Positions 787 through 18,725 of a stretch of DNA of 32,000 bases are shown piece after piece; the first letter of the stretch is position 1; every line of letters begins with the position of its first letter. The notes beneath the pieces were generated by a model that was not told the origin of the DNA, did not search any database, and worked only from the letters and a program-made list of their open reading frames with translations. The position numbers and the translations under genes were made by a program. This DNA is from Candidatus Omnitrophota bacterium. GTDB lineage: Bacteria > Omnitrophota > Gorgyraeia > Zapsychrales > JANLHA01. Where the stretch lies: positions 1,800,001 to 1,832,000 of the forward strand of contig OY759724.1 of assembly GCA_963662715.1 (NCBI GenBank), given 5' to 3'.

Positions 787-1857
787 TTGCTAAAATTTAT
801 CCGATATATCCAAAGAACCATCAATTATGTCTTAGGTTTGTTTTCCAATGACATGGGCATTGATTTGGGGACCGCCACGACGCTTGTTTATGTGAAGGGC
901 GAAGGCGTCGTCCTGTGCGAGCCTTCGGTTGTTGCCATTGAAAAAGAAACGAACCGGGTCGTGGCCGTGGGGGATGAAGCCAAGAAAATGTTGGGCCGTA
1001 CTCCGGGAAATATTGTCGCGATCCGGCCGATGAAAGACGGGGTTATTTCAGATTTTGAAATCACCGAAGCGATGTTGAAATATTTTATCAAGAAGGTCCA
1101 TAAACGTCAGGTTCTGGTTCGGCCGGCGATGGTCATTGCTATTCCTTCGGGCATTACCGAAGTGGAAAAGCGCGCCGTAAAAGATTCTGCGGAAAGAGCC
1201 AGCGCCCGGTCCGTGGAGCTGATTGAAGAGCCCAAAGCCGCTGCGGTCGGAGTCGGGCTTCCGGTCGAAGAAGCCGCAGGGAATATGATTATTGACATCG
1301 GTGGTGGAACGACGGAATTTGCTGTTATTTCATTGGGAGGACTCGTTTATTCCAAGTCGATCCGGATTGCCGGTGATGAAATGGACCAGGCGATTATGGA
1401 GTATTTAAAGAAAACTTATAATCTGATGATCGGAGAACGAACAGCGGAGGAGATTAAGATCCGGATCGGATCCGCTTATCCGCTGGAGGAAGAACTGACA
1501 ATGGACGTGCGGGGCCGGGATCTTATTGCCGGGCTGCCAAAGACAATTACAATTTCATCTGAAGAAATTCGGGAGGCACTGCAGGAACCGATTCAGGCCA
1601 TTGTTGATGCTTCAAAAATCACTTTGGAAAATACTCCCCCGGAACTTGCTGCGGATTTGATTGATCGAGGGATTGTTATGGCTGGCGGCGGCTCCCTCTT
1701 GCGGGGATTAGACAAGAGAATTGCCGAAGAGACAGGCCTTCCTGTTCACATTGCCGATGATCCTTTAACGGCTGTCGTCTTGGGAACGGGGCAGGTTCTT
1801 AACATGCCCGTGAAGCTTAGAAGACGTGTTGTTGTCCCGACCAAATTGGATTTTTAA
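787..1857 (+). CDS. mreB: rod shape-determining actin homologue MreB
   Basis: N-terminal [20 protein letters not shown] and actin-fold phosphate/adenosine motifs ([20 protein letters not shown]). TTG start preceded by GGAAGGA. An ATG start further in would delete conserved residues. Confidence 0.95.
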
Positions 1858-1924
1858 GTTCGTGCTTTCTCATTCTTGCGAGAGGTTCGTTTTTTTCCTC
1901 TTGTGGCCGGAACAACGAGGCGCC

Positions 1925-1964
1925 AATCCCTCCCGATGTCTACGGGGAGGGATTTACTTTTTTT
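1925..1964 (+). terminator. intrinsic terminator/attenuator-like hairpin between mreB and mreC
   Basis: AATCCCTCCC (1925-1934) pairs with GGGAGGGATT (1945-1954), leaving a 10-nt loop. TAC and then T7 (1958-1964) follow. Confidence 0.5.
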
Positions 1965-1990
1965 AAAATGATTATTTAATATTTACGTGA

Positions 1991-2776
1991 GTGTCTAGAT
2001 ACCATAAAAAAACATTAATTTACGGCTTCATTATCCTCAGTGTCGTTTTGTTGTTTTTCCTCCCCTCCCGTTTTGTTGCGCCCTTGAAATTCAAAATCAT
2101 TGAAGGCACGTCTTTGCCGGTACGCATTATTTCGATCCCGTTGCTGGAACTGAAAAAGATGGTTTTTTATCACAAAACACATGCCGACTATGTCAAGCTG
2201 AGGAAAGATTATAACACGTTAAAGGCCCGTCTGGTCGGCATGGAAGAGGTTGTCCTTGAAAACAATCGGTTGGAGAAACTGCTGAAATTCAAGCGCAGTC
2301 TGGTTTATTCATCTATCGGGGCCAGTGTCGTTGGCCGGGATCCCTCCAATTGGAATGAGACCGTTATTATTGATAAGGGAACGAGCGCCGGGGTTGATGT
2401 CGGGATGCCGGTTGTGAATGCCCAGGGGGTCGTCGGAAAAGTTGCAGAAGTGAGCGAAAAGAAAAGCAAGGTGATCCTTTTGACAGACCCGGGATTCGGC
2501 TCGGCCGCGCTGGTGAAGCGTTCCCGGGAAACGGGACTTATTTCCGGAACCCTCCAAGGCCTCTGCCGTATGCGTTATCTGTCAGCCGACGCTGATGTGA
2601 AAATAGGAGATCAGGTCATTACGTCTAAGCTCAGCTCTTCTTTCCCGGAAGGATTGCTGGTGGGAGAAGTCATCGCCGTTTATCGTAAAAAGAACAAGCT
2701 TTCCCTGGATTGTATTATCCAGCCGGCCGTCCCTTTGTCCCAGATAGAAGAGGTTCTGGTTATCCAGACACGCTAA
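1991..2776 (+). CDS. mreC: rod shape-determining protein MreC
   Basis: N-terminal TM helix, then a coiled-coil segment, then MreC beta-domain motifs (GVDVGMPVV..GVVGKV, GDQVITS..FPEGLLVGEV). Position after mreB fits. GTG start has no clear SD, so the start is uncertain. Confidence 0.85.
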   Translation: MSRYHKKTLIYGFIILSVVLLFFLPSRFVAPLKFKIIEGTSLPVRIISIPLLELKKMVFYHKTHADYVKLRKDYNTLKARLVGMEEVVLENNRLEKLLKFKRSLVYSSIGASVVGRDPSNWNETVIIDKGTSAGVDVGMPVVNAQGVVGKVAEVSEKKSKVILLTDPGFGSAALVKRSRETGLISGTLQGLCRMRYLSADADVKIGDQVITSKLSSSFPEGLLVGEVIAVYRKKNKLSLDCIIQPAVPLSQIEEVLVIQTR

Positions 2777-2778
2777 TT

Positions 2779-3264
2779 ATGTATCTTATTGCCATTATAT
2801 TAGGACTGGTTTTTGCCACTTTTGTCATAGAATGTGCGCTAGCTCAATTGATGAGTTACGCTTATATTCCTAATTTGCTTATTATCCTTATTGTTTTTTT
2901 CAACCTGTACCGGGGGACTCGTTACAGTCTGACAGCCGCGATCTTTGCCGGAGTGTTTAAAGACAGTTTTAGCGCCGGGCCTTTTGGCTTGTATACATTC
3001 TCATTTATCATTGCGGCATTTCTCTCGACGTTATTTAAGATGTACATTTATCAGACAGGCTCAATGCCCTCCCGCGTTTTTCTGGTCTGCGTCGTTACGA
3101 CCGGTTACGTCACCACGTTTTGGGTCGTGCAGCTTATGTTTACGTCTTTAACTTTTCCATCGGTCTTTTTCCATATTTTCGTTCCGGAAGTCGGTTTAAC
3201 AACTCTCATAGCTCCTTTGGCTTTTAAGAAATATCGGCAATGCGCGTTAAGATTATTCGCATAA
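2779..3264 (+). CDS. mreD: rod shape-determining protein MreD (polytopic membrane protein)
   Basis: Small, very hydrophobic multi-TM protein directly after mreC. I use the in-frame ATG at 2779 (MYLIAIILG...) rather than the track start at 2710, which overlaps the mreC 3' end. Called from context and hydrophobicity. Confidence 0.75.
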   Translation: MYLIAIILGLVFATFVIECALAQLMSYAYIPNLLIILIVFFNLYRGTRYSLTAAIFAGVFKDSFSAGPFGLYTFSFIIAAFLSTLFKMYIYQTGSMPSRVFLVCVVTTGYVTTFWVVQLMFTSLTFPSVFFHIFVPEVGLTTLIAPLAFKKYRQCALRLFA

Positions 3265-4955
3265 TTCTTTTTTTGGGTTTGCTCTGCGTGAGCTTAGACC
3301 TGATCTATATTCAGGGTATCCGGGGGAGTTTTTATTTTCACCAAAGTGTCAATAACCGCATCAGGGTTATCCCGATGGAGGGCATCCGCGGCCGTATCCT
3401 TGACTGTAACGGAATTGTTCTGGCGGATAACCGTTTGTCTTTTAACGTGGCGGTTATCCCGCAGGATATTAAAGAAAATGAGAAAGTCTTCCATTATTTA
3501 AGCCAGGTTTTAAATGTAAAAAAGAAAAAATTGCTGCAGCAGTATTATCAGAAAAAACTGGCTCCTTTTGCTCCCGTCGTTGTGGCGGAGGATGTTGACA
3601 AGCGCGTCGCGATGATCCTGGAAGAGAACCGTTTCCGCTTCCCGGGCCTTTACGTTCAGGAGCATTACCGGAGGTCTTATAACCTCAAAGAGATCGGCGC
3701 GCATATCCTGGGGCATGTGGGAAAAATTAACCGGATCAGGATGGAGAAATTGAAAGATTACGGTTACACGCCTTTGAGTGTCGTCGGTTATTCCGGCGTG
3801 GAAGAATACTATGATAATTATCTGAAAGGGCAGGAGGGCGGCCAGCAAATTGAAGTGAACAACCGGGGGCAACAGGTCAGGCTGCTCAGTATCCGGGAGC
3901 CGGAAAGCGGACAGGATGTCCAGTTGACTATTGATGCCCGTATCCAGCAACTTGCCCAGGAAAGCCTTACGGGACGGAACGGGGCCATTGTCATCATGGA
4001 TTTTGACAGCGGAGCTATTTTGGGTATGGTGAGTTCGCCCTCTTATGATCCCAATATTTTTGTCGATAATCGTCTGAAGAAAAAGATAAGCTGGGCCATG
4101 ACAGATTCTTCGTCCCCTCTTCTTAACCGGGTGATACAAGGTCAGTATCCTCCCGGGTCGATTTTTAAAACGATTGTCACCATTACCGGCTTGGCCCATA
4201 AAAAAATCAGCCGTCACACGAGCTTTAACTGCCCGGGTTATTATGCTTTGGGCCGGAGGAAGTTCCGCTGCGCGCACGTCCACGGTTCGCAGAATCTGAT
4301 CCAAGGCATTGCCCACTCATGTAACGTTTATTTTTTCAACGTCGGTTTGCTTGTCGGCCCGGATTTGCTGCATAAATATGCCAGACTGCTGGGGCTGGGG
4401 CAGCTTACCAATGTCGATTTGCCGGCGGAAGAAAAGGGTTTTGTCCCGAGCCGCAGGCAAAGGAAGATTAAGAATCCGCAGGGCTGGTTTAAGGGCGACA
4501 CCTTGAATTATTCCATCGGACAGGGAGAAGTCCTGGTCACGCCTCTGCAAATAACGCGTCTTATGACGACGATCGGCAGGGGGGGCAAGGAAGTCCAGCC
4601 TTTTTTAATAAAGAAGATCGGAGACCAGGATATTGTTCAATTTTCAACGATCAGGATTATCAATGTCGACCCGAAGATTTTTGACACGCTCCAAGAGGGG
4701 TTAAAGGAGGTTGTCAAGGACCCCTACGGCACGGGACGGCTTTTGGATATGCCTGATTTTGAAATTTCAGGAAAGACCGGAACCGCGCAGTCCATTCCCG
4801 GCCATGAGGACCACGGATGGTTCGCTGGCTATAATCTAAAAGGAAAAAGACGCATATCTTTTTGTGTTTTTCTGGAATTCGGCGGTTCCAGCTATAATGC
4901 CGTTGTTATTGCCCGGGAATTATTACAGCGACTAAGGCAGGAAAATATTCTGTAG
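3240..4955 (+). CDS. mrdA: penicillin-binding protein 2 (elongasome class B transpeptidase)
   Basis: N-terminal TM anchor, PBP dimerisation region, and transpeptidase motifs SIFK (SxxK) and KTGTA (KTG). Sits between mreD and rodA. Confidence 0.9.
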   Translation: MRVKIIRIILFLGLLCVSLDLIYIQGIRGSFYFHQSVNNRIRVIPMEGIRGRILDCNGIVLADNRLSFNVAVIPQDIKENEKVFHYLSQVLNVKKKKLLQQYYQKKLAPFAPVVVAEDVDKRVAMILEENRFRFPGLYVQEHYRRSYNLKEIGAHILGHVGKINRIRMEKLKDYGYTPLSVVGYSGVEEYYDNYLKGQEGGQQIEVNNRGQQVRLLSIREPESGQDVQLTIDARIQQLAQESLTGRNGAIVIMDFDSGAILGMVSSPSYDPNIFVDNRLKKKISWAMTDSSSPLLNRVIQGQYPPGSIFKTIVTITGLAHKKISRHTSFNCPGYYALGRRKFRCAHVHGSQNLIQGIAHSCNVYFFNVGLLVGPDLLHKYARLLGLGQLTNVDLPAEEKGFVPSRRQRKIKNPQGWFKGDTLNYSIGQGEVLVTPLQITRLMTTIGRGGKEVQPFLIKKIGDQDIVQFSTIRIINVDPKIFDTLQEGLKEVVKDPYGTGRLLDMPDFEISGKTGTAQSIPGHEDHGWFAGYNLKGKRRISFCVFLEFGGSSYNAVVIARELLQRLRQENIL

Positions 4956-5014
4956 AAGGGATGATCGACCGTCATAGGTCCCTTGGCCATTTTTTATAAG
5001 GAGCGAGGAAGTTT

Positions 5015-6121
5015 ATGCGCAGGGATTTGGGTTTTATTATTCTGTTATTCACCATTATCATTATCGCTATTGGTTTGGTCTGTCTTTACAGCGCGTCCTA
5101 CCAGAATGTCCGGGTGTCCCATAAGGTTTTTTATGATCAGCTGGTCCTTTCCATTGCCGGGGTTTTCTTGCTGATTTATTTGAGCCAGCTTGATTACCGG
5201 AGATTTTATGACCTGGCTTATTTTTTTTACGGCGGAAGTGTTCTTCTGCTTATTTTGGTTTTAATCGGCGGACGTCACGCCTTGGGCGCCCAGAGATGGT
5301 TTACTGTCGCGGGCATCAGTTTTCAGCCGTCGGAATTGGCCAAGCTGACGTTAATCCTGGGTCTGGGACGATATTTCAGTGACCGTCGTTCTGCTCTTTC
5401 CGTCAGGCCACGGGATCATTTCGGGGTTTTATGGCACGATCTTTTTATCCCTTTATGCCTGACACTCGTTCCGATGGTTCTTATTTTCAAGCAGCCGGAT
5501 TTGGGGACAGCACTTTTGTTTTTTGGTATTTTTATATTTATGCTGTTTGCCAGCGGGCTGCGGTACCGGTATGTCCTCGGCTTCCTTTTCCTCTGTTTAT
5601 CGGTTCTGCCGTTTGGCTGGAACATTATTAAGCCGTATCAAAAGGACCGGCTGCTTGTATTCCTGAACCCCAATATCGATCCTTTAGGAGCCGGATACAC
5701 AATCATTCAGTCCAAGATCGCGGTCGGTTCGGGGCGGCTCTGGGGCAAAGGCTGGTTAGCCGGGACGCAGAATCAGCTCAATTTCCTTCCCGAAAGGCAT
5801 ACGGACTTTATTTTTTCCGTCATTGGAGAAGAGTGGGGGCTTTTCGGAACGTTGATTTTGTTGCTGTGTTATGCGGTTATTATTCATGCCGGATTAAAAG
5901 TCGCGGAACAAGTCAAGGACCGGTTTGGGATGCAAATTGCGGTGGGGATCATTGGCATCTTTTCATTACAGGTCTTAATTAATATCGGGATGGTTCTGGG
6001 GATGTGTCCTGTGGTCGGGTTGACCTTGCCTCTTATCAGTTACGGCCGGTCCTCTTTTCTGGTGTCCTTGATTATGATCGGTATACTATTGAACTTAAGT
6101 AAGCGGCGGACTATCTTTTAG
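5015..6121 (+). CDS. rodA: SEDS peptidoglycan polymerase RodA (FtsW/RodA/SpoVE family)
   Basis: About 10 TM segments and SEDS motifs (FQPSELAK, PDLGTA, LPERHTDFIFSVIGEEWG, PLISYGRSS). Called rodA rather than ftsW because it follows mrdA. Confidence 0.9.
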   Translation: MRRDLGFIILLFTIIIIAIGLVCLYSASYQNVRVSHKVFYDQLVLSIAGVFLLIYLSQLDYRRFYDLAYFFYGGSVLLLILVLIGGRHALGAQRWFTVAGISFQPSELAKLTLILGLGRYFSDRRSALSVRPRDHFGVLWHDLFIPLCLTLVPMVLIFKQPDLGTALLFFGIFIFMLFASGLRYRYVLGFLFLCLSVLPFGWNIIKPYQKDRLLVFLNPNIDPLGAGYTIIQSKIAVGSGRLWGKGWLAGTQNQLNFLPERHTDFIFSVIGEEWGLFGTLILLLCYAVIIHAGLKVAEQVKDRFGMQIAVGIIGIFSLQVLINIGMVLGMCPVVGLTLPLISYGRSSFLVSLIMIGILLNLSKRRTIF

Positions 6122-6218
6122 GTTAAACGGAGACAGTCGGCAGAAACCGGAAGCGGAGAAATCTTGTCTTGCGGGGCAATTCATTATAAATTATATATAT
6201 AAATAAGATAATCTGTTG

Positions 6219-6224
6219 TATAAT
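6219..6224 (+). promoter_or_regulatory. candidate -10 element (TATAAT) ahead of the pilus cluster
   Basis: Perfect TATAAT in the AT-rich 174-nt gap after rodA, about 75 nt upstream of the MshEN gene. No convincing -35. Confidence 0.3.
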
Positions 6225-6295
6225 AGGCCAAAATTCTTATAGCTAAAAGACAGAATAAAAAAAGATATAAAATTTTGTGATGAATTCCAGATGAA

Positions 6296-6754
6296 TTGAA
6301 GAATATGAAAGACTACAAACGGACATCCAATAAACATTTAGGTGAATTACTCGTTGAGAAGGGTGTTATCGACCGGGAACAGGTCGCCATGGCCATGGCT
6401 TATCAAAATGAGAATGGCGGTCTTATCGGCGAGATCTTAGTTGAATTGAAATTCGCCACCGAAGAAGACATCGCTCAAGCCCTTACCTGCCAATATGGAT
6501 TCCCCTACCTGCCCTTATCGAACTATGAAATCGATCAAGAAGTCATTAACGCCGTCCCGGAGAACGTCTGCCAGAAGAATTGTCTTATCCCCATTGATAA
6601 GATCGGAAAAAGTTTGACCGTGGCCATGTCCAATCCTTTAAATCAAACAGCTGTCGAGGATATTGAAATGCTGACCGGTTGCAGTGTGCAAACCTTTGTG
6701 TCAACGACAAGCGATATCAAAGAAGCTATCAAAAAATACTACAGTATAGTTTAA
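6296..6754 (+). CDS. stand-alone MshEN / T2SSE_N domain protein (putative c-di-GMP receptor), no ATPase domain
   Basis: 152 aa that align by eye with the N-terminal roughly 150 aa of both downstream ATPases (VPENV..LIPIDK..LTVAMSNPLN..EDIEMLTG..IKEAIKKYY). Tandem 24-aa MshEN-like motifs (HLGELLVEKGVIDREQVAMAMAYQ, then LIGEILVELKFATEEDIAQALTCQ) are separated by the 5-aa spacer NENGG. The start could be TTG 6296 or ATG 6305. Confidence 0.8.
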   Translation: MKNMKDYKRTSNKHLGELLVEKGVIDREQVAMAMAYQNENGGLIGEILVELKFATEEDIAQALTCQYGFPYLPLSNYEIDQEVINAVPENVCQKNCLIPIDKIGKSLTVAMSNPLNQTAVEDIEMLTGCSVQTFVSTTSDIKEAIKKYYSIV

Positions 6755-6761
6755 GGACCCT

Positions 6762-8498
6762 ATGTTTTCCTTAAAAGAGCGATTACAAGAAATCCTTCTG
6801 CGAGATAACATTATTAAGCAGGAAGATTTAGACAGGGCTTTACAAGAACAAAAGAAATCCGGCGGTGATCTGAGTAAAGTCCTGGTGGAGTTAAATCTTA
6901 TTGGCGAGGATGACTTAACGCATATTCTCAGTGAAGGCTTGGGCCTCCCCCCGATTGACATATCCCGGCTGACAATCGACCCCAATGTCGTTAAGCTTAT
7001 TCCCCAGGAAGTCGCTGTCAAGTACCAGATTATGCCTATTTCCAAAATGGGCGGGAATCTGACGTTGGCGATGGCGGATCCGTTGAACATTTTTATTATT
7101 GATGATGTCAAAACCTTAACGGGGCTGAACATTACACCTATTATTGCCAGGTCCACACAGCTTCAGCAGGCGATTGAGCATTGTTATACGAATGAGGGTG
7201 AGTCTGCCGAAACACTGGAAAGCATTATTAAGGATATGCGTGATGCCGAGGAACTGGAGTTGGTGAAGGATCTGGAAGGGGACGGGGAGAAAGTATCCGT
7301 TGAAGATATTACCCAGGATGCCCCGATGATCAAGCTCACGGATACGATCATCCAGCAGGCTGTTATGGCCAAGGCCAGTGACGTTTTTATTGAGCCCTTG
7401 GAAAAAACGCTTCGTATCCGTTACCGTGTGGACGGGATTATCCGGGAAATTGATCAGATGTCGAAGGCGTTGCATCTTCCGATCATTTCCCGTATTAAAG
7501 TCATTTCCAACCTGGATATTTCCGAAAGGCGGGTTCCTCAGGACGGGAGATTCCGGACGATCCTTTCCGGAAACAGGGAAGTGGATTTCCGCGTGAACGT
7601 TTTGCCGACTGTTTTCGGGGAAAAGATCGTTTTGCGTGTTCTGGATAAATCGGCCGGGATGGTCGATATCGCCCAGCTGGGTTTTCAGCCGGCGGACCTG
7701 AAGAGGCTCCAGGAATGCTCCCAGAAACCGCACGGGATGATTTTGTCCTGCGGTCCGACGGGCAGCGGGAAAACGACAACACTATATTCTATTTTGAAAT
7801 TTGTGGACTCCCCGGGCAAAAACATCGTGACCGTTGAAGATCCTGTGGAATATCAGATGGTCGGGATGAATCAGGTGAACGTTAAGCCTTCGGTGGGCCT
7901 GAGTTTCGCTTCGACGTTACGTTCTATTTTGCGCCAGGACCCGGATGTGATCATGATCGGAGAAATCCGGGAGAGGGAAACCCTGGATATCGCTGTTAAG
8001 GCCGCGTTGACCGGGCATCTTGTCGTCAGTTCTTTGCATACCACGACCGCCCCAGGCTCTGTGATCCGTATGGTGAATATGGGCGTTGAACCTTTCCTTA
8101 TCTGTTCTTCTGTTATTGCCATTGTCGGCCAGAGATTATTAAGAAGGATCTGTCCGAAATGCAAACAGGAGAACGTGGTGTCAAAGGAAATGGCCGATAA
8201 ATTAGGCCTCCAGACAAAAGGGCAGAAGGGAGAGTTGACCCTTTTTCGCGGCAAAGGTTGTAAAAACTGTTTGAACACAGGGTACAAGGGCCGGGTGGGG
8301 ATCGCGGAAGTCCTGGTCCTGACCCCCAAGGTCCGGAAGGAAATTTTACAGCATTCCGGGGAACTGCAGATCAAAATGACCGGGAGAAAAGAAGGTATGA
8401 CGACCATGCGGGAAGATGCCGTGGCCAAAGCTTTGGCGGGTTTGACAACGATGGAAGAAGTGTTGCGGGTGACGGCCCCCGATGAGCCGCTGCCGTAA
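6762..8498 (+). CDS. pilB: type IV pilus / T2SS assembly ATPase, PilB/GspE family (paralog 1)
   Basis: T2SSE_N-like N-domain, Walker A GPTGSGKTTT, Walker B/Asp box DPDVIMIGEIRE, His box SSLHT, and a tetracysteine motif CPKC...CKNC typical of assembly rather than retraction ATPases. Confidence 0.9.
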   Translation: MFSLKERLQEILLRDNIIKQEDLDRALQEQKKSGGDLSKVLVELNLIGEDDLTHILSEGLGLPPIDISRLTIDPNVVKLIPQEVAVKYQIMPISKMGGNLTLAMADPLNIFIIDDVKTLTGLNITPIIARSTQLQQAIEHCYTNEGESAETLESIIKDMRDAEELELVKDLEGDGEKVSVEDITQDAPMIKLTDTIIQQAVMAKASDVFIEPLEKTLRIRYRVDGIIREIDQMSKALHLPIISRIKVISNLDISERRVPQDGRFRTILSGNREVDFRVNVLPTVFGEKIVLRVLDKSAGMVDIAQLGFQPADLKRLQECSQKPHGMILSCGPTGSGKTTTLYSILKFVDSPGKNIVTVEDPVEYQMVGMNQVNVKPSVGLSFASTLRSILRQDPDVIMIGEIRERETLDIAVKAALTGHLVVSSLHTTTAPGSVIRMVNMGVEPFLICSSVIAIVGQRLLRRICPKCKQENVVSKEMADKLGLQTKGQKGELTLFRGKGCKNCLNTGYKGRVGIAEVLVLTPKVRKEILQHSGELQIKMTGRKEGMTTMREDAVAKALAGLTTMEEVLRVTAPDEPLP

Positions 8499-8578
8499 CC
8501 CGATACGGAAAGCAAATACATACACCATGCCGGGCACACGACGTCCCCCCTTCGGGGACGCGGATCCGCCCATAAAAA

Positions 8579-10297
8579 TTGTCAGATATGTCACAACCAC
8601 TTAAGACAAAGATTATTCAAACGCTGATAGAGTCGCTCAATATTAAAAAAGAGGACCTGAACGAGGCGATGGAGCTGCAGAAAAGCAAGAACATCAGCCT
8701 GGACAGGGCTTTGATTGAGAAAGGCCTTATCAAAGAAGAAGACCTGATGGTCCTGCTTGTCCGGGAACTTCATATCCCTTTTATTAATTTAAAAAAATAC
8801 AAGATCGACCTTTCTTTAAAAGAGGTTATCCCCGAACGGGTCGCCCGGCAATACCGTATAATTCCTCTTTCCCAAATGGAAAAGACTATTACGATTGCGA
8901 TGTCTGATCCCTTAAATATCTTTGCCATTGATGATCTCAAGAATCTGACGGGCAAGGATGTGGACGTTGTCATGAGCACGGAATCAGATATTATGAATAC
9001 GATCGAAAGTTATTATGGCGGGAAGATTTCCAGTTCGGTCCAGGACGTCAGTAAGGATATCGACGTGGGGGGGCTGGAAATTATTTCTGACAGTGAGCTG
9101 ATTGAGGGTGCGGAGATCGCCGCTGATGAAGGGGAGCAGGCGCCCATTATCCGGCTTGTGAACCTTGTCATCCGGGAAGCCATAAAACAGCGGGCTTCGG
9201 ATATTCATATCGAGCCGATGCTCGACAGCATGCGCGTCCGTTACCGTATCGACGGGACTCTTGTGAACGCCATGAAAATCCCCAAAGACAATCAAAATGC
9301 CATTATCGTCCGTGTCAAGATCATGTCCCGCCTGGATATTACGGCCACCCAGGTGCCGCAGGACGGCCGTTTTAAAATGCGGGTCGCCAACCAGGAAGTG
9401 GATTTCCGCGTGTCTCTTTTGCCGACGACTTTCGGGCAGAAAATTGTCATGCGCGTCCTTGATAAAAAGAATCTGCGTGTCGGGCTGGACGGTCTTGGTT
9501 TCTCAGAGGCGTCGATCGAGAAGCTTAAAGATGCCATTGCGCAACCTTTTGGCATGATCCTCGTGACAGGTCCTACGGGGAGCGGGAAATCGACAACCCT
9601 GTATTCGATTATCAATGAGTTGAATCAGGTTGATAAGAATATTATTACTGTCGAAGACCCGGTTGAATATGTCGTTGATGGTTTGACGCAGATTCAGGTT
9701 AAAGCGGATATCGGATTGACTTTCGCGGAAGGCTTAAAGGCGATCCTCCGGCAGAGTCCGGATATTGTTATGGTCGGGGAAATCCGTGATTTTGAGACGG
9801 CGGACATCGCTATTAAGGCGTCGTTAACGGGGCAAATGGTTTACTCGACGCTGCATACCAATGATGCTCCGGGGGCGTTAACGCGTTTGGTTGATATGGG
9901 CGTAGAGCCTTTTTTGGTGTCCTCGAGTCTGGTGCTGGTCTGCGCACAAAGACTTTGCCGTAAAATATGCCGGCACTGTAAAGAACCTGTCACGATCCCG
10001 GATAAAGTTTTGCAGGAGTTGGGCATCCCGGTGAAAAAAGGACAGATTTTTTATCAGGGAAAAGGTTGCGATGGCTGCCGGCAAACAGGTTTTTTCGGAA
10101 GAATAGGCGTTACAGAAATGATGCCGTTGGACGATCATATCCGGGAGCTGCTGATTATGGGGAAGTCTTCCGATGAAATTAAGAACTATGCCAGGGAAAA
10201 AATGGGAATGCTGACATTGTGGGAAGACGGCGTGCAGAAATTTCTGCAGGGGGAGACAACATTGGATGAGGTCCTGAGGATCAGCTCCAGCGATTAA
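8579..10297 (+). CDS. pilB: type IV pilus / T2SS assembly ATPase, PilB/GspE family (paralog 2)
   Basis: Same architecture as paralog 1: GPTGSGKSTT, SPDIVMVGEIRD, STLHT, CRHC...CDGC. By eye about half of the core positions are identical to paralog 1. The start could be TTG 8579 or ATG 8588. Confidence 0.9.
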   Translation: MSDMSQPLKTKIIQTLIESLNIKKEDLNEAMELQKSKNISLDRALIEKGLIKEEDLMVLLVRELHIPFINLKKYKIDLSLKEVIPERVARQYRIIPLSQMEKTITIAMSDPLNIFAIDDLKNLTGKDVDVVMSTESDIMNTIESYYGGKISSSVQDVSKDIDVGGLEIISDSELIEGAEIAADEGEQAPIIRLVNLVIREAIKQRASDIHIEPMLDSMRVRYRIDGTLVNAMKIPKDNQNAIIVRVKIMSRLDITATQVPQDGRFKMRVANQEVDFRVSLLPTTFGQKIVMRVLDKKNLRVGLDGLGFSEASIEKLKDAIAQPFGMILVTGPTGSGKSTTLYSIINELNQVDKNIITVEDPVEYVVDGLTQIQVKADIGLTFAEGLKAILRQSPDIVMVGEIRDFETADIAIKASLTGQMVYSTLHTNDAPGALTRLVDMGVEPFLVSSSLVLVCAQRLCRKICRHCKEPVTIPDKVLQELGIPVKKGQIFYQGKGCDGCRQTGFFGRIGVTEMMPLDDHIRELLIMGKSSDEIKNYAREKMGMLTLWEDGVQKFLQGETTLDEVLRISSSD

Positions 10298-10483
10298 TAA
10301 TTATATTATCATTTATTGAAAATTTTTGGCAGCGGGCAGAAAAAATTTCTTATGCCGCAATGAAAATATGCCCGACGTCGTATCGAATTTTAAAAAAACA
10401 AAAAAATTCCATGAAAGACTTTTTATCTCCCCCAAAATGATGTTATATTATGGGTGGATGATTTTTACATAAGGACAGAAAAC

Positions 10484-11686
10484 ATGCCTACCTATAAATA
10501 CGTAGCAAAAGACCAGTCGGCGCGTAATGTCGTTGGCAAAATTAACGCCGAAAGTCAGTCGTCTGTCATCGAGGAGCTGAGAAAACGGCAGCTCACCATT
10601 ATCGATGTCAAAGAAGTAAAGTCGGGTACTTCCAAAGCCTATTTTGTCAGGAAATCCGTTAAGCCCGAAGATCTCGTCGTGTTCTCCCGGCAGTTATCGA
10701 CCATGGTGGACGCCGGCATCCCCATATTGCAGGCCCTGGATGCTTTGCAGGAACAGATCACACAAGCCTATTTCCAATCTGTGGTGATCGCGGTCCGTGA
10801 TGATATCCAGCTTGGCAGCAGTTTATCCGCCGCCTTTGCAAAACATCCCAAAGCGTTTGATACGCTCTTTGTTAATATGGTTAAAGTCGGTGAGACCGGC
10901 GGTGTTTTAAGCTCGATCCTGGACCGGATATCTTCTTACCTGGAAAAGACCTTAAAGTTGAAACGGAAAGTCAAATCCGCGTTAATATATCCCAGCGTTG
11001 TTATTTTTATGGCGGTTGTTATCACGGTTATTCTGCTTGTCAAAGTCGTCCCCACGTTTGCTTCCATTTATGATTCCTTCGACTCAGAGCTGCCGGCCAT
11101 GACCCAGATGCTGATCAATGTCAGTGACCTGCTTAAACATAATTTATTGTATTTGCTGGGAGGGCTGGTGCTGTTTGGGATCCTGGTGACACGGGGGTAT
11201 CACACCGATCGCGGTCGGGAAATTATTGATAGAGTGTCTTTACGCGTTCCTATCTTCGGCCCGCTCATCCGTAAAGTCGCCATCAGCCGTTTTAGCCGGA
11301 CGTTGGCGACGTTATTGCAGACGGGCGTCCCGATCCTGGAATCCCTGGATATCGTTGGCCGGACCAGCGGGAACCGGGTCGTAGAAAATGTTATCGTGAA
11401 TGTCAAAAATAACGTCCGGGAGGGGGAGAGTATCGCGACTCCTTTGGTGAAGAGCGGTGTGTTTCCTCCCATGGTGACGCGTATGATTTCTATCGGGGAA
11501 AAATCGGGCCAGTTGGAAAAAATGTTGGGTAAAATTGCTGATTTCTACGATGATCAAGTCGATGCTGCCGTTGCCGGTTTAACGAGTATTATTGAACCCC
11601 TCATCATTGGTTTTCTTGGTATTGTCGTTGGTTTTATTGTTATCGCGTTATTTTTGCCGATTATTAATATTACTCAGATTATTTAA
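10484..11686 (+). CDS. pilC: type IV pilus / T2SS inner-membrane platform protein PilC/GspF
   Basis: Two GspF-type repeats (FSRQLSTMVDAGIPILQAL and FSRTLATLLQTGVPILESL) and three TM segments. I use ATG 10484 (MPTYKY..., AAGGA 8 nt upstream) rather than the track GTG at 10454. Confidence 0.9.
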   Translation: MPTYKYVAKDQSARNVVGKINAESQSSVIEELRKRQLTIIDVKEVKSGTSKAYFVRKSVKPEDLVVFSRQLSTMVDAGIPILQALDALQEQITQAYFQSVVIAVRDDIQLGSSLSAAFAKHPKAFDTLFVNMVKVGETGGVLSSILDRISSYLEKTLKLKRKVKSALIYPSVVIFMAVVITVILLVKVVPTFASIYDSFDSELPAMTQMLINVSDLLKHNLLYLLGGLVLFGILVTRGYHTDRGREIIDRVSLRVPIFGPLIRKVAISRFSRTLATLLQTGVPILESLDIVGRTSGNRVVENVIVNVKNNVREGESIATPLVKSGVFPPMVTRMISIGEKSGQLEKMLGKIADFYDDQVDAAVAGLTSIIEPLIIGFLGIVVGFIVIALFLPIINITQII

Positions 11687-13753: not shown

Positions 13754-14146
13754 ATGAATAAGAAAGGTTTTACGCTCGTTGAAATCATGATCGTCGTCGC
13801 CATCATCGCCTTACTGGCAGCCATCGCTATTCCTAACTTGCTAAGAGCCAAGATCTCTGCTAATGATGCGTTGGCAAAGAGTACATTGCGTTCGCTGTCA
13901 ACAGCTTCCGAGACCTTCGCCACGGCAAATACGGGTAATTATCCTGTTGACATTACGTCTTTGACCGGCGCTACGCCGCCGTATATCAACACGGAATATT
14001 GTGCAACCACAGTGTCCGGTTTTAATTACTCCTGTACTTTTGACGCCAGTGGTGGACACTATACGTATACTGCAACTCCGGTAACTGTTGGAACATCAGG
14101 GACAACGACTTACACGATTACAACGGGAGGTATTTTAACTCCGTAG
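13754..14146 (+). CDS. prepilin with class III signal peptide (type IV pilin / GspG-like major pseudopilin)
   Basis: MNKKG|FTLVEIMIVVAIIALLAAIAIPNLL is a short basic leader, a G|F cleavage site, Glu at +5 and a hydrophobic helix. A GspG-like NTGNYP motif is present. A Cys pair (YCATTVSGFNYSC) and a T/G-rich C-terminus follow. GGAGG lies about 9 nt upstream. Confidence 0.9.
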   Translation: MNKKGFTLVEIMIVVAIIALLAAIAIPNLLRAKISANDALAKSTLRSLSTASETFATANTGNYPVDITSLTGATPPYINTEYCATTVSGFNYSCTFDASGGHYTYTATPVTVGTSGTTTYTITTGGILTP

Positions 14147-14704: not shown

Positions 14705-15757
14705 ATGGCAGGTTTTCTTAAGCGTGTTATCCCGGAGCGGGCGGCAGTTCCGATGCTTGGTTTAGATATCGGGACCTATGCCTGCAAGGGCGTTAAAATG
14801 AAAAAAACGGGTTCCGGGTATACCTTATTAGACTGGGCCGTCGTTCCTGTAGAGGCGGGGGATCAGAAGAAAGCTATAAAACAGATAGTGCAAAAAATGT
14901 CAGCTGACCATATGGCTCCTTTAACGGCTGTCAACGGGAAAGGGACTCTTATCCGTTATATTGAACTGCCCCGTATGCCGCTGGCTGACTTGAAAAAATG
15001 TTTCGCCATAGAAGCTGATAAGTATTTTCCGTTTCCTTTAGACCGTATTTACACCGATTGCCATATTCTGGACACCACCCTGAAAGACAATAAAATGCTG
15101 GTCTTGGTCGCGGCATCCAAGAAAGAAATTGTTGATGACCGGGTGTCCCTGTTAACGGAATTAGGGTATCATCCTGATTTTATTTCACTTAATGCCGTAG
15201 CCATTTCTAACATTATTAATGTCCTGAACCCTAAGATGGATGAAAGTCCGGAAAAAACCGCAGACTCTGCCAATCACGCGGCTGTCGCTATTCTGGATAT
15301 CGGCGAGGTGGTCAGCAACTTAACGATTATGGCGCAGGGCATGCCTCTTTTCACCCGTGATGTCTTTATCGGAGGGCGGGATTTTACGAAAGCTTTAACA
15401 AATTCTTTAAGCCTGCGTTACGAAGAAGCAGAAAAACTTAAAGGGAATCCGGAGAAACAACTTGGGAAAGTCTTGGATGCCTGTGAATCTGTTATCATTA
15501 ACCTGGTGTCGGAATTGAGATTGTCGTTTGATTATTTCATGACGGAAAAGAATATCGGTATTACCTATTTGCTGCTTACCGGAGGGACATCCAAACTCGA
15601 AGGGATGGATAATATCATTGCCAAGAATTTGGATATTAAAGTCTCCCGGTGGAACCCCTTTCCCTGGGTGACCCTGGGAGAGAAGATCCAGGCGGAAGAG
15701 ATTGAAGGCCAGGCGCCGTTTTTGGCTGTCGCCCTGGGATTGGCCTTGTATTCTTGA
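14705..15757 (+). CDS. pilM: type IV pilus assembly protein PilM (actin-like ATPase fold)
   Basis: About 350 aa. LGLDIGTYACKGV N-terminal phosphate-1-like motif and LLLTGGTSKLEGM near the C-terminus. First gene of a pilMNOPQ-ordered block. Confidence 0.9.
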   Translation: MAGFLKRVIPERAAVPMLGLDIGTYACKGVKMKKTGSGYTLLDWAVVPVEAGDQKKAIKQIVQKMSADHMAPLTAVNGKGTLIRYIELPRMPLADLKKCFAIEADKYFPFPLDRIYTDCHILDTTLKDNKMLVLVAASKKEIVDDRVSLLTELGYHPDFISLNAVAISNIINVLNPKMDESPEKTADSANHAAVAILDIGEVVSNLTIMAQGMPLFTRDVFIGGRDFTKALTNSLSLRYEEAEKLKGNPEKQLGKVLDACESVIINLVSELRLSFDYFMTEKNIGITYLLLTGGTSKLEGMDNIIAKNLDIKVSRWNPFPWVTLGEKIQAEEIEGQAPFLAVALGLALYS

Positions 15758-15799
15758 CGCGGCCCGAGGCGGTAGGCATAACAAAAAGAATATTATAAA

Positions 15800-16384
15800 A
15801 TGATTGAAATAAATTTAGTACCACCGCAGTTTAAAAAGAAAAAGAAAAGCCGCCAAGTCAGCGAGTCGGCATCGAGCCCTTCTAAGAATAATATCATTGG
15901 GTTTGCCAGCCTTTTTATCGTTTTTCTGGCTATTGTCGCCGGAGCCTTGCAATTTATCATTTCGCAGAAATTAGCCCAGCGGAAAAAGTTGATGTCAGAA
16001 CTGGCAGAATTGGTCCCGCAGAAGATAAATACCGACAGATATGTCGGACAGATCAAGGATATTAATAAAAGATTAGAGCCGCTGGAAGAGATCCTGGGAC
16101 AGAAGGATATTATGTGGTCGAAAAAATTGCATGCTGTCAGTGAAAGCTTGCCTCGGGGTGTATGGCTGACCAAAATGCATCTGGACGAGGATGTTTTGCT
16201 TATTAACGGCAGTGCGGTATCGAAAGTCCAGACCGAAATGATCAGCGTGCATAGTTTTAATACAAGCTTAAAAAATAATGAGGATTTTATGGCGGATTTC
16301 AAGGAAATCGAACTCGAATATATCAAAAGCAGAACGATTAACGGAACCCCTGTCGCGGACTTCACGATCAGGGTTGATTTGTAG
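15800..16384 (+). CDS. pilN: type IV pilus assembly protein PilN
   Basis: N-terminal IEINLVPPQ motif (the PilM-binding INLLP type), a basic stretch, a single TM helix, then a periplasmic coiled-coil and ferredoxin-like region. Position fits. Confidence 0.85.
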   Translation: MIEINLVPPQFKKKKKSRQVSESASSPSKNNIIGFASLFIVFLAIVAGALQFIISQKLAQRKKLMSELAELVPQKINTDRYVGQIKDINKRLEPLEEILGQKDIMWSKKLHAVSESLPRGVWLTKMHLDEDVLLINGSAVSKVQTEMISVHSFNTSLKNNEDFMADFKEIELEYIKSRTINGTPVADFTIRVDL

Positions 16385-16409
16385 CCTCCGGGCAGAAAGA
16401 GGTTGATCC

Positions 16410-17015
16410 ATGGGTGGCATGACAGGACAGATGGGATCAGTTGTTAATAAGATGAACGAAAAGAATCCCTTTATGGTGATTGCGGGGGTCTTTACCGTGA
16501 TCCTTGTTGTTTTTTATCTGTTCCCCCTGCAGTTTCAGATCAAGACGCTGCAGACCGTCAACCCTAAAATCGAGGAACTCACAAATGACGTCACGGAGAC
16601 GAAGAATAATATTCTTCGTGTCAATCAGTATAAGAAGGAAGTCGCTAATCTGGAAAGCAAATACGAAAATTTGCAGCGAAGAATTAAGCAAAAGGAAGAC
16701 ATCCCGTTTTTATTGGAAAATATCTCCAGAATTGCGGATAAACACGGCGTGAGGATTGAACAAATTATGCCGCAAACAGCGATTGATGAACCTCTCCTGG
16801 AAAATGATGAGGGAAAATATTTCTCCATACCGATCATCATTGAGGCGCAAAGCGGTTTCCATAATTTTGGTATGTTTCTTAATCAGCTGGAACGGGAGGG
16901 GGTTTTTTTGCGGCTGACGGATTATTCGATTCAGACGGGTATCGATGACCCTCATCTGTGTTTGATTAACTTGTCCATTGAACTCGTTGTCTTTGAAGAT
17001 GGGGGCAAGGGATGA
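16410..17015 (+). CDS. pilO: type IV pilus assembly protein PilO
   Basis: Single N-terminal TM helix, coiled coil, and a PilO-like C-terminal domain. AAAGAGG lies 7 nt upstream. Size and position after pilN fit. Confidence 0.8.
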   Translation: MGGMTGQMGSVVNKMNEKNPFMVIAGVFTVILVVFYLFPLQFQIKTLQTVNPKIEELTNDVTETKNNILRVNQYKKEVANLESKYENLQRRIKQKEDIPFLLENISRIADKHGVRIEQIMPQTAIDEPLLENDEGKYFSIPIIIEAQSGFHNFGMFLNQLEREGVFLRLTDYSIQTGIDDPHLCLINLSIELVVFEDGGKG

Positions 17016-17395
17016 AAACTATGACGATCATGCGGGTTTTTATCTGTACTTTGATTCTCTGGGGCTACCGGGGGCCTGGGCTTCAAGCCGAAGAGGCTAT
17101 GGAAGAGGAGCCGGAGTTTATTTATGCCCCTAATGACAAAAGGGACCCTTTTTGGCCTTTGGTCAATTCCAAGGGGATGATTATCAGCTTTGAAAAAGAT
17201 TTGCTGGTAACGGATTTGATGCTGGAAGGAATATTTGTCGGTGAGGCAGGGAAGAACGTGGCTATCATTAACGGAAAAATTCTGCAGAAAAACGAATCAA
17301 TCGGTGTATTCACCGTTAAAGATATAAAGGAAAATCGGGTAACATTACAAAAAGGTCAAGAACGAGTCATACTAAAACTCAAAAAGGAGGATTGA
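17012..17395 (+). CDS. pilP: PilP-like periplasmic pilus assembly protein
   Basis: ATGA overlap with pilO. Signal peptide, an RDPFWPL motif (PilP-type DPF), and a small beta-rich C-terminus (VAIINGKIL..GV..VKDI). No canonical lipobox seen. Confidence 0.7.
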   Translation: MKTMTIMRVFICTLILWGYRGPGLQAEEAMEEEPEFIYAPNDKRDPFWPLVNSKGMIISFEKDLLVTDLMLEGIFVGEAGKNVAIINGKILQKNESIGVFTVKDIKENRVTLQKGQERVILKLKKED

Positions 17396-17396
17396 C

Positions 17397-18725
17397 ATGT
17401 TTAGGAAATGGGTAACACTGGTTATTTTTTTGGCCTTGATGATGACTCCTGCCTATGCACAAGAAAGCACCACGGCTGGTCAGCCTGGCTCGCAAGATAG
17501 TTTGTCTTTCTCCGACGAAGGGCATGTGAGCCTGGATTTTAGGGATGCAGATATCCAGAACGTGTTGCGTATCCTTTCTTATAAGAGTGGAGTCAACATC
17601 GTGGCAGGTCCGGAAGTGACAGGATTAATCACGATCAAACTGCAGGATGTCCCTTGGCAGAAAGCCTTGCAGGTTGTTTTGGAAACCTACGGCTATGCCT
17701 ATGAACAGCGGGGCAATATTATCACGGTCACAACGATTGAGAATCTTAAGAAAAGGCGGGAGGACGCGAAAGCATTGGCTGAGCAGGAACCGTTAATCAC
17801 GAAAACGTTTGTTCTGAATTATGCGAAAGCCACGGAAGTCATCGGCTCTGTTGCCAAGATGAAGACGGACCGGGGCAGCGTTAATCATGATGAGCGGACC
17901 AACGCCATTATTGTGCGGGATATCCCGGAGAACCTTGAGTTGATCGCAGAAGTGATTTCAAAACTGGATGAGACAACACCCCAGGTGCTGATCGAGGCCA
18001 AAATTGTTGAGACAACATTGAGCAACAGCGATAAATTAGGTATTGACTGGGTCGCCCAGGCTTCCATTACCGGGTCGGCCCGGCCGCATATCTGGCCTTT
18101 TTCAAACTCGACGGAAAATAAATATATGAAGGATGATAATTTCCCGTCAGCTTCCGAATCCGACTTCACCTTCGGGACTTTGAGTTTCGCCGAGGCGCAG
18201 GCGGTTTTTGAAGTGTTGTCATCTCGTTCTGATACGAATATTCTGTCAAACCCGCGTATCGTAACGCTGGATAACAAAACAGCAAAAATCACCGTGGGGA
18301 GCCAGTATCCGATCCCGGAGTACAACTACAATGAGGAACAGGCCACATTGCAGGTCAGCGGCTGGGAGTATAAAGACATCGGTATTATTTTTGAAGTTAC
18401 GCCGCATGTGAATAACACCGGCCATGTGACCCTGGATATTAATCCGAAGATTACGGCCATCCTGGATTATGTCACGGTAGAAAACACGTCGCTTCCTCAA
18501 TTGAGTGCCGAAGAGGCTCAGACGAGTGTTATGATAAAAGACGGTGAGACTCTTGTTATCGCGGGCTTGATCAAAGACCAGGTCTCCGACGTCGTAAGGA
18601 AAATCCCGTTATTAGGAGATATCCCGCTTCTGGGACAACTGTTTCGTAAAAACGAAAAGACAACGACGAAAACAGATCTTCTGATTTTCCTGACGCCGCA
18701 TATTATTACGGATGAACAGGAATAG
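17397..18725 (+). CDS. pilQ: type IV pilus secretin PilQ (compact, no AMIN domains)
   Basis: Signal peptide ending PAYA|QES. N0/STN-like domain (VSLDFRDADIQNVLRIL...DVPWQKALQVVL). Secretin core (NPRIVTLDNKTAKITVG, KIPLLGDIPLLGQLFR). AAGGAGG RBS. Confidence 0.9.
   Translation: MFRKWVTLVIFLALMMTPAYAQESTTAGQPGSQDSLSFSDEGHVSLDFRDADIQNVLRILSYKSGVNIVAGPEVTGLITIKLQDVPWQKALQVVLETYGYAYEQRGNIITVTTIENLKKRREDAKALAEQEPLITKTFVLNYAKATEVIGSVAKMKTDRGSVNHDERTNAIIVRDIPENLELIAEVISKLDETTPQVLIEAKIVETTLSNSDKLGIDWVAQASITGSARPHIWPFSNSTENKYMKDDNFPSASESDFTFGTLSFAEAQAVFEVLSSRSDTNILSNPRIVTLDNKTAKITVGSQYPIPEYNYNEEQATLQVSGWEYKDIGIIFEVTPHVNNTGHVTLDINPKITAILDYVTVENTSLPQLSAEEAQTSVMIKDGETLVIAGLIKDQVSDVVRKIPLLGDIPLLGQLFRKNEKTTTKTDLLIFLTPHIITDEQE

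Follow-up and report, generated by a model that had tools for sequence, protein, structure and literature searches.

What does a free-standing MshEN domain do at the head of a pilus operon whose two assembly ATPases each carry an MshEN domain of their own? The question is raised by a 32,000-nucleotide (nt) stretch of the genome of a Candidatus Omnitrophota bacterium (GenBank assembly GCA_963662715.1, contig OY759724.1, positions 1,800,001 to 1,832,000), hereafter the window (32 kb). In it mreB, mreC, mreD, the PBP2 gene and rodA (787-6121) are followed, all on the forward strand, by an AT-rich gap of 174 nt, a small open reading frame (ORF), two genes for PilB-type ATPases (PilB1 and PilB2), pilC, a coiled-coil gene, a pilin gene, pilM, pilN, pilO, a gene in the PilP position and pilQ, an order in which the small gene opens a complete type IVa pilus cluster. 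Our best reading is that the product of the small gene is an MshEN (GSPII) regulatory domain translated on its own, from the leading cistron of the type IVa pilus motor operon of Omnitrophota. MshEN is a receptor for cyclic di-GMP (c-di-GMP), and tandem MshEN-ATPase architectures are known (PMC5013675). The Omnitrophota concerned here are uncultured organisms, and function is read from their sequences.

The stand-alone protein has a single Pfam match, to MshEN (PF05157; 75.4 bits, cut-off 23.1), and the Pfam scan found in it neither the T2SSE ATPase domain PF00437 nor a PilZ domain (PF07238). On TIGR02538 it scores 85.2 bits, below the 675.65 cut-off, and matches profile positions 2-137 alone. 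Homologues carry the JGI name 'type IV pilus assembly protein PilB', and orthologues are publicly annotated as 'hypothetical protein' or, wrongly, 'PilB'; given that the ATPase domain is absent, we regard the PilB label as over-annotation. Sequence matches in the PDB are to the N-domains of PilB, PilF and MshE. The AlphaFold2 (AF2) model (predicted local distance difference test, pLDDT, 89.5; predicted template modelling score, pTM, 0.80) has helices at residues 4-18, 24-37, 41-47 and 53-64, and then a mixed alpha/beta part that contains three strands, and so predicts the two-subdomain MshEN fold, a four-helix bundle plus an alpha/beta N1. The best PDB matches found by Foldseek are all MshEN/GSPII domains (PilF GSPII-A 9g1w, TM 0.87; MshEN 5htl, TM 0.67-0.73; PilF GSPII-B 8pdk, 0.62); 7lkm, the X. 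citri PilB N-domain in complex with PilZ, is matched as well, and the MshEN_C part matches the EpsE N1 domain 2bh1 (TMt 0.72). A preliminary description of this DNA, made from its letters and ORFs, had called the protein only the T2SSE_N/MshEN module and had proposed a PF05157 profile search and a model of the protein alone. Both have now been carried out, and the profile match, the lack of an ATPase domain and the complete two-subdomain fold agree with that description.

To compare the nucleotide-binding motifs of the three window proteins, we scored 24-mers by the relaxed pattern that Wang et al. 2016 published (PMC5013675), with position 1 widened to Leu following Neissner et al. 2024 (PMC11731258). 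The consensus used is therefore two 24-residue motifs, (R/K/L)LGxx[LVI][LVI]xxG[LVI][LVI]xxxxLxxxLxxQ, with a 5-residue spacer. The 24+5+24 segments of all three proteins align gaplessly to V. cholerae MshE R9-Q61, an alignment that also showed the three segments quoted earlier to be exact. In the stand-alone protein, motif 1 (HLGELLVEKGVIDREQVAMAMAYQ) and motif 2 (LIGEILVELKFATEEDIAQALTCQ) keep the exact spacing, both Gly3, both Gln24 and every hydrophobic position. Its deviations number two, His instead of R/K/L at motif 1 position 1 and Lys instead of G/A/S at motif 2 position 10, and both fall outside the published strict and relaxed patterns. PilB1 has six deviations, including the replacement of Gly3 by Gln and by Ser, and PilB2 also has six, including Gly3 to Ile and to Asp and Gln24 to Glu; the terminal Gln of motif 2 is lost in both ATPases. 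The polar contacts to c-di-GMP come from Gly3, through a hydrogen bond of its backbone amide to guanine, and from Gln24, the ribose-phosphate being bound by the terminal Gln of motif 2 (PMC5013675, PMC11731258), and Leu at motif 2 position 1, as in the stand-alone protein, gives nanomolar affinity in PilF GSPII-B (PMC11731258). The preliminary claim of a better motif than that of either PilB thus holds at two deviations versus six and six, although it left out the two of the stand-alone protein itself. The NCBIfam model NF053729, 'c-di-GMP_motif' (cut-off 38 bits), ranks the proteins in the same order, with 61.2 bits for the stand-alone protein, 44.9 for PilB1 and 29.5, below the cut-off, for PilB2; by E-value the model matches all 37 sequences, degenerate PilB N-domains included, and it discriminates only by bit score against the cut-off combined with inspection of residues.

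This pattern extends across the phylum. Scanning one genome per GTDB species gave 38 loci, 36 of them from Omnitrophota metagenome-assembled genomes (some labelled 'uncultured Planctomycetales'), and all 36 Omnitrophota species genomes carry an orthologue of 146-153 amino acids (aa) at 55-92% identity. Where contigs reach, the gene order is rodA, an optional insert, the MshEN-only gene, pilB1, pilB2, an optional second MshEN-only paralogue, pilC, the coiled-coil gene and the pilin gene. The MshEN-only gene lies directly upstream of pilB1-pilB2 wherever the contig continues, and MshEN and PilB1 are encoded separately in 36/36 close loci. A survey for conserved MshEN-only genes upstream of pilB, another suggestion of the preliminary description, has thus found them in these 36 species genomes and in three distant lineages. 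Gly3 is kept in both motifs of all 36 stand-alone orthologues, and Gln24 in 34 of the 36 for motif 1 and in every one for motif 2. In the PilB1 orthologues, Gly3 is lost from motif 1 in all and from motif 2 in all but one, while Gln24 is mostly kept in motif 1 and mostly lost (to Gly) in motif 2; the motif is degenerate in 32/32 Omnitrophota PilB1 orthologues examined. PilB2 orthologues have lost Gly3 from both motifs in every case, keeping Gln24 in motif 1 in 24/31 and losing it from motif 2 in 30/31, mostly to Glu. Mean deviations from the relaxed consensus are 2.0 for the stand-alone proteins, 5.7 for PilB1 and 6.1 for PilB2 orthologues. Within the set, a full-length PilB with a complete motif occurs only in the CSSED10-310 candidate division (locus L037), at a locus without a free MshEN gene. 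Because 36 species genomes have the same gene with the same motif state, we exclude chance. Over 30 species, mean pairwise identity is 72% for the whole stand-alone protein and 74% for its motif-bearing half, compared with 64% and 58% for the N-domains of PilB1 and PilB2 and 71% and 70% for their ATPase cores, and the stand-alone protein is therefore constrained as strongly as the catalytic domains.

Such constraint bears on whether the gene is merely a non-functional remnant, a frameshifted or duplicated 5' fragment of pilB. Elsewhere, truncated pilB fragments that encode MshEN_N only are known, one being that of the P. thiaminolyticus reference strain (PMC9765702), but here both subdomains of the fold are intact, PilB1 is complete and the mean identity over 30 species equals that of the ATPase cores, and we give this explanation almost no credence. 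The ORF at 6296-6754 (+) was reported correctly; its TTG start at 6296, which would give 152 aa, was not the better choice. We take the ATG at 6305 as the start, since the resulting 149 aa fits the orthologue lengths (148-153 aa) and the start peptide MKDYKRTS is found again in close orthologues of related genomes; the best 120 homologues span 148-165 aa, mostly 149-151 aa. The stop codon occupies 6752-6754 and PilB1 starts at 6762, 7 nt downstream and in another frame, its residues 8-571 aligning to the PilB equivalog model TIGR02538 over nearly full length, which upholds the earlier statement that the small gene is not a frameshift fragment. A frameshift fragment or recent duplicate of pilB is ruled out by the complete PilB1, by the conservation and by the 31-32% identity between the stand-alone protein and the adjacent PilB N-domains. 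Among themselves the window's three MshEN domains share 31-36% identity; against the Geobacter PilB N-domain all three reach 40-45%, and against that of CSSED10-310 two reach 42-45%, a pattern of old paralogues with no recent split.

Further afield, a profile-free search of 1.8 billion cluster representatives returned 21,502 matches. By our count, 60 of the best 150 are of 215 aa or less, and all of these short proteins with a named source are from Omnitrophota. We read the genomic context of four distant short proteins (loci L040/L041, L043, L044 and L039). In L040/L041 (45% identity) the order is a receiver-domain gene, MshEN-only, PilB, PilB, PilC; in L043 it is PBP2, RodA, a radical-SAM gene, HAMP-GAF-GGDEF, a 355-aa PilT-like ATPase, MshEN-only, PilB, PilB, PilC, pilins, PilM; and in L044 a histidine kinase, a receiver, GAF-GGDEF, MshEN-only, PilB, PilB, PilC. 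The stand-alone proteins of L040, L043 and L044 have fully intact motifs, including Gly at motif 2 position 10. The PilB1-type N-domain is degenerate in all three loci and the PilB2-type N-domain in L040 and L044, the L043 copy keeping Gly3 and Gly10 of motif 2. The distance from the MshEN-only gene to pilB1 is 7 nt in the window, -8 nt in L040 and 2 nt in L043. The two are joined in P0134, a protein of 765 aa: residues 4-149 are 42% identical to the stand-alone protein, a Gly/Lys/Asn-rich linker of ~40 residues follows, and residues 193-758 are 47% identical to PilB1 over its whole length. The first of its MshEN domains retains both Gly3 and both terminal Gln, with Thr at motif 1 position 2 and an insertion in motif 2, and the second is degenerate. 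On its contig (L042) a PilB2-like gene and then pilC follow, with no free MshEN gene upstream. Of the evidence suggesting that the stand-alone protein works with PilB1, this Rosetta-stone fusion, found on one metagenome contig, is the most direct. P0141 and P0142 are genuine (MshEN)2-T2SSE ATPases.

Retention of the site in the free domain, its loss from both ATPases, the tight co-translation and the fused homologue are together best fitted by a nucleotide-sensing N-domain supplied in trans. On this proposal c-di-GMP would bind the intact 53-residue site of the stand-alone protein, which would then act in trans as an additional N-terminal regulatory domain of the assembly motor, PilB1 most probably. 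It would correspond, in split form, to ATPases whose domains are covalently joined, the (MshEN)2- and (MshEN)3-T2SSE types to which T. thermophilus PilF belongs. The PilB1 and PilB2 N-domains, with their nucleotide site lost, would presumably keep a structural or platform-binding role alone; the MshEN_C-type part of GspE and PilB touches platform partners. We consider it very likely that the protein acts on the pilus motor and probable that it binds c-di-GMP; to the combination of the two we incline, but only slightly. Domain identity, predicted fold, the motif state of the three proteins, phylum-wide synteny and conservation, and the fused homologue are direct results, while we infer c-di-GMP binding, the partner and the direction of the effect on the pilus. 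The earlier suggestion that sensing had moved to a trans-acting subunit gains comparative support from operon linkage, motif pattern, conservation and fusion, but the word 'moved' is uncertain, as the domains are old paralogues.

A second gene accompanies many of these operons. In 17 of the 36 close loci, a gene of 472-493 aa lies between rodA and the MshEN-only gene on the same strand, often overlapping the MshEN start codon. It encodes, by Pfam, a HAMP-GAF-GGDEF protein with predicted N-terminal membrane segments, and a GGDEF-domain sensor is also found directly upstream in the distant loci L043 and L044, the L044 copy without a recorded HAMP match. This domain content ties the operon to c-di-GMP-type signalling. 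The window's own lineage has no such gene at this site, and the Pfam scan of the window's pilus operon found no EAL or PilZ domain. In an alignment with solved diguanylate cyclases, the sensor's RFGDHEF falls on RYGGEEF, and SxxD stands in place of the inhibitory-site RxxD. Further links to c-di-GMP signalling are that close relatives of the window's MshEN domain occur as fusions with PilZ and that Omnitrophota are reported to have PilZ genes and GGDEF domains (bioRxiv 10.1101/2023.11.21.568195); a motif-only scan of 0.57 Mb of related loci gave no match to an HD-GYP signature.

A number of observations weigh against c-di-GMP sensing on behalf of PilB1. Motif 1 position 1 is His or Gln in the orthologues, outside the tested R/K/L, and Lys at motif 2 position 10, in the turn, is invariant among the 36 close orthologues. 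The MshEN_C Asp that contacts guanine in V. cholerae MshE and PilF appears, by our reading of the PilF alignment, to align with a variable Asn. PilF GSPII-A with a restored consensus still does not bind (PMC12002112, Neissner et al. 2025), its site being blocked by a capped, extended helix 1 and by inter-subdomain contacts, and from this result we regard motif conservation as necessary, not sufficient, for binding. It is this non-binding domain (9g1w) that is the best structural match of the AF2 model, which may reflect merely an apo-like conformation. By eye, KRTSNK before HLG does not fit the helix-capping hexapeptide of GSPII-A (T/S/D-xx-E/Q/D); helix 1 of the model extends over residues 4-10, but residues 1-7 have pLDDT < 50. 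As to the partner, the MshEN-PilB1 fusion is known from one metagenome contig only, and a mirror-tree over 20 species, with the MreB/PBP2/RodA background removed, singled out none (r with the stand-alone protein 0.76 for the PilB2 N-domain, 0.61 for the PilB1 N-domain, 0.49-0.56 for the ATPase cores and 0.56 for RodA). Given so poor a control as RodA, we do not count the mirror-tree as partner evidence. An orphan MshEN-only copy (L039:9001-9456; 41% identity to the window protein, BLASTP) sits beside Macro-domain and MscS-channel genes, far from pilus genes, and thus not every free MshEN protein of Omnitrophota is tied to pilB. As to the signal, the neighbouring GGDEF is degenerate everywhere (GDHEF, AEHEF; RDDKF in L043, SEDSL in L044) and has no RxxD, so that it does not demonstrate local c-di-GMP synthesis, and the canonical GGDEF signature was absent from the motif-only scan of 0.57 Mb of related DNA, where the only pattern matches were MreB false positives.

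Part of the conservation may serve a purpose other than ligand binding. The segment LKFATEEDIAQALTCQYGFPYLPL (window 6446-6517, residues 48-71 of 149 aa) comprises helix alpha4 with the linker after it. Over 30 species it is near-invariant, even at solvent-facing positions, and it is probably an interface with another protein; KFATEEDIA is present as well in the N-domains of full-length PilB proteins from CSSED10-310 (L037) and Elusimicrobiales (L038). The protein could accordingly be a nucleotide-independent decoy or competitor, a free N1/GSPII domain that fills the PilM/PilC docking site of the PilB N-domains and so sets how often, or which, PilB engages, the motif being kept for fold or interface. 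Invariance of that segment goes beyond the need of c-di-GMP contacts, the MshEN_C half is conserved like the N half (72% vs 74%), the structure matches an EpsE N1 domain that binds the EpsL/GspL cytoplasmic domain (2bh1, 4pht), and the presence of a motif is no guarantee of binding. Fold stability, however, cannot explain why Gly3 and Gln24 are retained in the free protein only, given that the PilB N-domains lose them yet stay folded as MshEN, and exactly the ligand-contacting residues have been selectively retained over ~40 lineages. We therefore judge a decoy to be unlikely.

With its degenerate GGDEF domain, the neighbour more probably works as a receptor or adaptor than makes c-di-GMP, and it resembles in this the receptor/adaptor-type GGDEF of FimX. 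The small protein might belong, as adaptor, to a three-part relay of the Xanthomonas FimX-PilZ-PilB kind, running from the membrane HAMP-GAF protein with its degenerate GGDEF through the small MshEN protein to the PilB N-domain or domains, with or without c-di-GMP as the signal. For such a relay speak the position of the sensor gene, directly upstream and often overlapping the start codon, and the precedent of a small protein that bridges a degenerate c-di-GMP enzyme to the PilB N-domain (7lkm, 7lkq; PMC8389850). The window's lineage and its nearest relatives nevertheless have an unchanged MshEN gene with no sensor gene at the site, and L040 carries a receiver-domain gene in its place, which leaves the relay quite unlikely in our estimation.

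Alternatively, the protein may be a general small c-di-GMP receptor or buffer with targets other than the pilus motor, its place before pilB being historical. Orphan genes such as that of L039 are in keeping with this, as are other representatives that join this MshEN subfamily to PilZ, a DnaA-type ATPase domain or coiled coils, and P. aeruginosa PA3740, which consists of an MshEN_N domain and a divergent N1, has no ATPase and is listed as experimentally characterised for c-di-GMP binding (PMC5013675). Yet the orthologue group of the window gene stays immediately upstream of pilB1 despite differing surroundings, and it is fused to PilB1 in L042; we find a general receptor very improbable and retain the trans-acting regulatory domain of the pilus motor as the preferred explanation.

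Some of the fused representatives are of interest in themselves. In P0158 (454 aa, a metagenome representative) an MshEN domain with an intact-looking motif is joined to a DnaA-type AAA+ ATPase domain (PF00308), which, if real, suggests c-di-GMP input to a DnaA-like protein. P0165, P0199 and P0162 are MshEN-PilZ fusions, with two different c-di-GMP receptor domains per protein, and one MshEN-PilZ fusion also has DUF7305, a domain found too at the ends of the L042 and L044 pilus loci.

Elements of these explanations can be combined. In a three-tier module, a HAMP-GAF sensor with a catalytically dead GGDEF would act on the free MshEN protein, which would in turn make a c-di-GMP-dependent choice between two nucleotide-blind PilBs engaging PilM/PilC. 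This is doubtful, but if true the free domain would be a diffusible 'clutch', more than a detached N-terminus, in a signalling module not described elsewhere, and with a PilT-like gene immediately upstream, as in L043, it could mean switching of extension modes or pilus functions. That PilT-like ATPase gene (L043:5944-7011; T2SSE domain only) overlaps the MshEN-only gene and comes from one distant lineage; none like it was noticed among the window ORFs, where the Pfam scan covered the pilus-cluster and flanking ORFs only.

The features of the window, and those of related loci that bear on it, are collected in Table 1.

Table 1. Coordinates of the MshEN-only gene, its parts and the surrounding pilus genes; positions are those of the window unless a locus is named.
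Feature	Position	Strand	Basis
AT-rich intergenic region rodA / MshEN-only gene; probable promoter (assignment by inference only) and 5' leader of the pilus motor operon	6122..6304	+	Read from sequence; perfect TATAAT at 6219-6224
Stand-alone MshEN/GSPII protein, 149 aa	6305..6754	+	Pfam, NCBIfam, AF2, Foldseek, orthologues in 36 species genomes
MshEN_N four-helix bundle with predicted 53-residue c-di-GMP site	6335..6493	+	Gapless alignment to V. cholerae MshE R9-Q61
Motif 1	6335-6406	+	
Spacer NENGG	6407-6421	+	
Motif 2	6422-6493	+	
MshEN_C (T2SSE_N1-type alpha/beta) subdomain	6494..6751	+	PF05157 match to residues 67-150 of the 152-aa ORF; AF2; Foldseek
PilB1, full-length PilB-type assembly ATPase with its own MshEN domain	6762..8498	+	PF00437 442.8 bits, PF05157 79.2 bits, TIGR02538 643.5 bits
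PilB1 degenerate motif, residues 7-59	6780-6938	+	Six motif deviations
PilB2, second full-length PilB-type ATPase	8579..10297	+	PF00437 438.8 bits, PF05157 80.4 bits
PilB2 degenerate motif	8609-8767	+	Six motif deviations
PilC platform protein	10454..11686	+	PF00482 T2SSF 222.6 bits; place after PilB2 conserved in related loci
Coiled-coil protein, 524 aa	11721-13295	+	
Type IV pilin	13754..14146	+	PF07963 N_methyl
PilM, PilN, PilO, small PilP-position protein, PilQ secretin (remaining type IVa pilus machine)	14705..18725	+	PF11104, PF05137, PF04350, PF00263/PF03958
HAMP-GAF-GGDEF genes	L014:6561-7991, L017:4162-5610, L029:6509-7966, L031:6564-7982, L043:4523-5887, L044:5691-7001		Pfam
Second MshEN-only paralogue	L005:6227-6640, L007:5321-5749, L014:12018-12449, L015:12098-12502, L025:8789-9229		

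A scan of 5900-10600 for sigma-70 promoters and terminators gave counts not above those of shuffled sequence and made no call in the rodA-MshEN gap, and the operon boundaries therefore rest solely on gene spacing. The mechanically assigned TTG start of PilB2 is probably wrong, most orthologues having 568-570 aa, which fits an ATG at 8588. In some species a second MshEN-only paralogue of 146-154 aa, 33-40% identical to the first and with Gly3 and Gln24 kept in both motifs, lies between pilB2 and pilC; the window is without it, its pilB2-pilC gap measuring 156 nt. The coiled-coil protein between pilC and the pilin gene is rich in Glu, Lys and Gln and has an N-terminal signal-like segment and no Pfam match. 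Its place is conserved in many, not all, of the related loci that reach so far, at an identity of just 21-36%.

How N1/MshEN domains control PilB-type motors has been called poorly understood, the domain being flexible and badly resolved in structures (PMC11656802). A lineage in which the ligand-site-bearing domain is a separate, co-translated protein offers that domain in a form that can be purified, titrated and mutated apart from the ATPase. Type IVa pili have been proposed to serve attachment in the ultra-small, probably host-dependent Omnitrophota (PMC10066038), and the stand-alone protein is a likely regulatory input to these pili. The same paper, the main one on Omnitrophota genomics, treats type IVa pili and neither this gene nor c-di-GMP, and free MshEN proteins go unmentioned in a 2024 review of PilB cofactors (PMC11656802). 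Small MshEN-only proteins, multi-MshEN ATPases and c-di-GMP input to PilB in trans via FimX-PilZ are already known.

With V. cholerae MshE (5HTL), the stand-alone protein shares the PF05157 and NF053729 families, the two-subdomain fold and the gapless 24+5+24 site. It differs in being a separate polypeptide where MshEN is there the covalent N-terminus of the ATPase, in having His or Gln rather than Arg at motif 1 position 1 and Lys rather than Gly at motif 2 position 10, and in an identity of only ~26%. The (GSPII)3-T2SSE ATPase PilF of T. thermophilus and other (MshEN)2-4-T2SSE proteins (Cthe_1107, P0134, P0141, P0142) resemble our system in having several MshEN domains per motor subunit, of which only some are competent for c-di-GMP, as is known for the tandem GSPII domains of PilF (PMC12002112, PMC11731258). 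P0134 is also like the window in that a motif-bearing MshEN domain stands N-terminal to a degenerate one adjoining the ATPase. The extra MshEN domains of these multi-GSPII ATPases are covalent, whereas in Omnitrophota the domain is a separate gene product with two ATPase paralogues encoded downstream. P. aeruginosa PA3740, which is not known to lie in a pilB operon, is likened to our protein by domain content only, having a highly divergent N1 in contrast to the canonical N1 and fixed place before pilB1 of the Omnitrophota protein. It too is small, contains MshEN only and is listed among experimentally characterised c-di-GMP-binding proteins (PMC5013675 supplement). In the Xanthomonas FimX-PilZ-PilB system, c-di-GMP input likewise reaches the motor in trans, through small or degenerate-domain proteins, a degenerate GGDEF protein included, that dock on the PilB N-domain (PMC8389850, 7lkm, 7lkq), but the adaptor there has a PilZ fold and the sensor an EAL domain, while in Omnitrophota the small protein is itself an MshEN domain.

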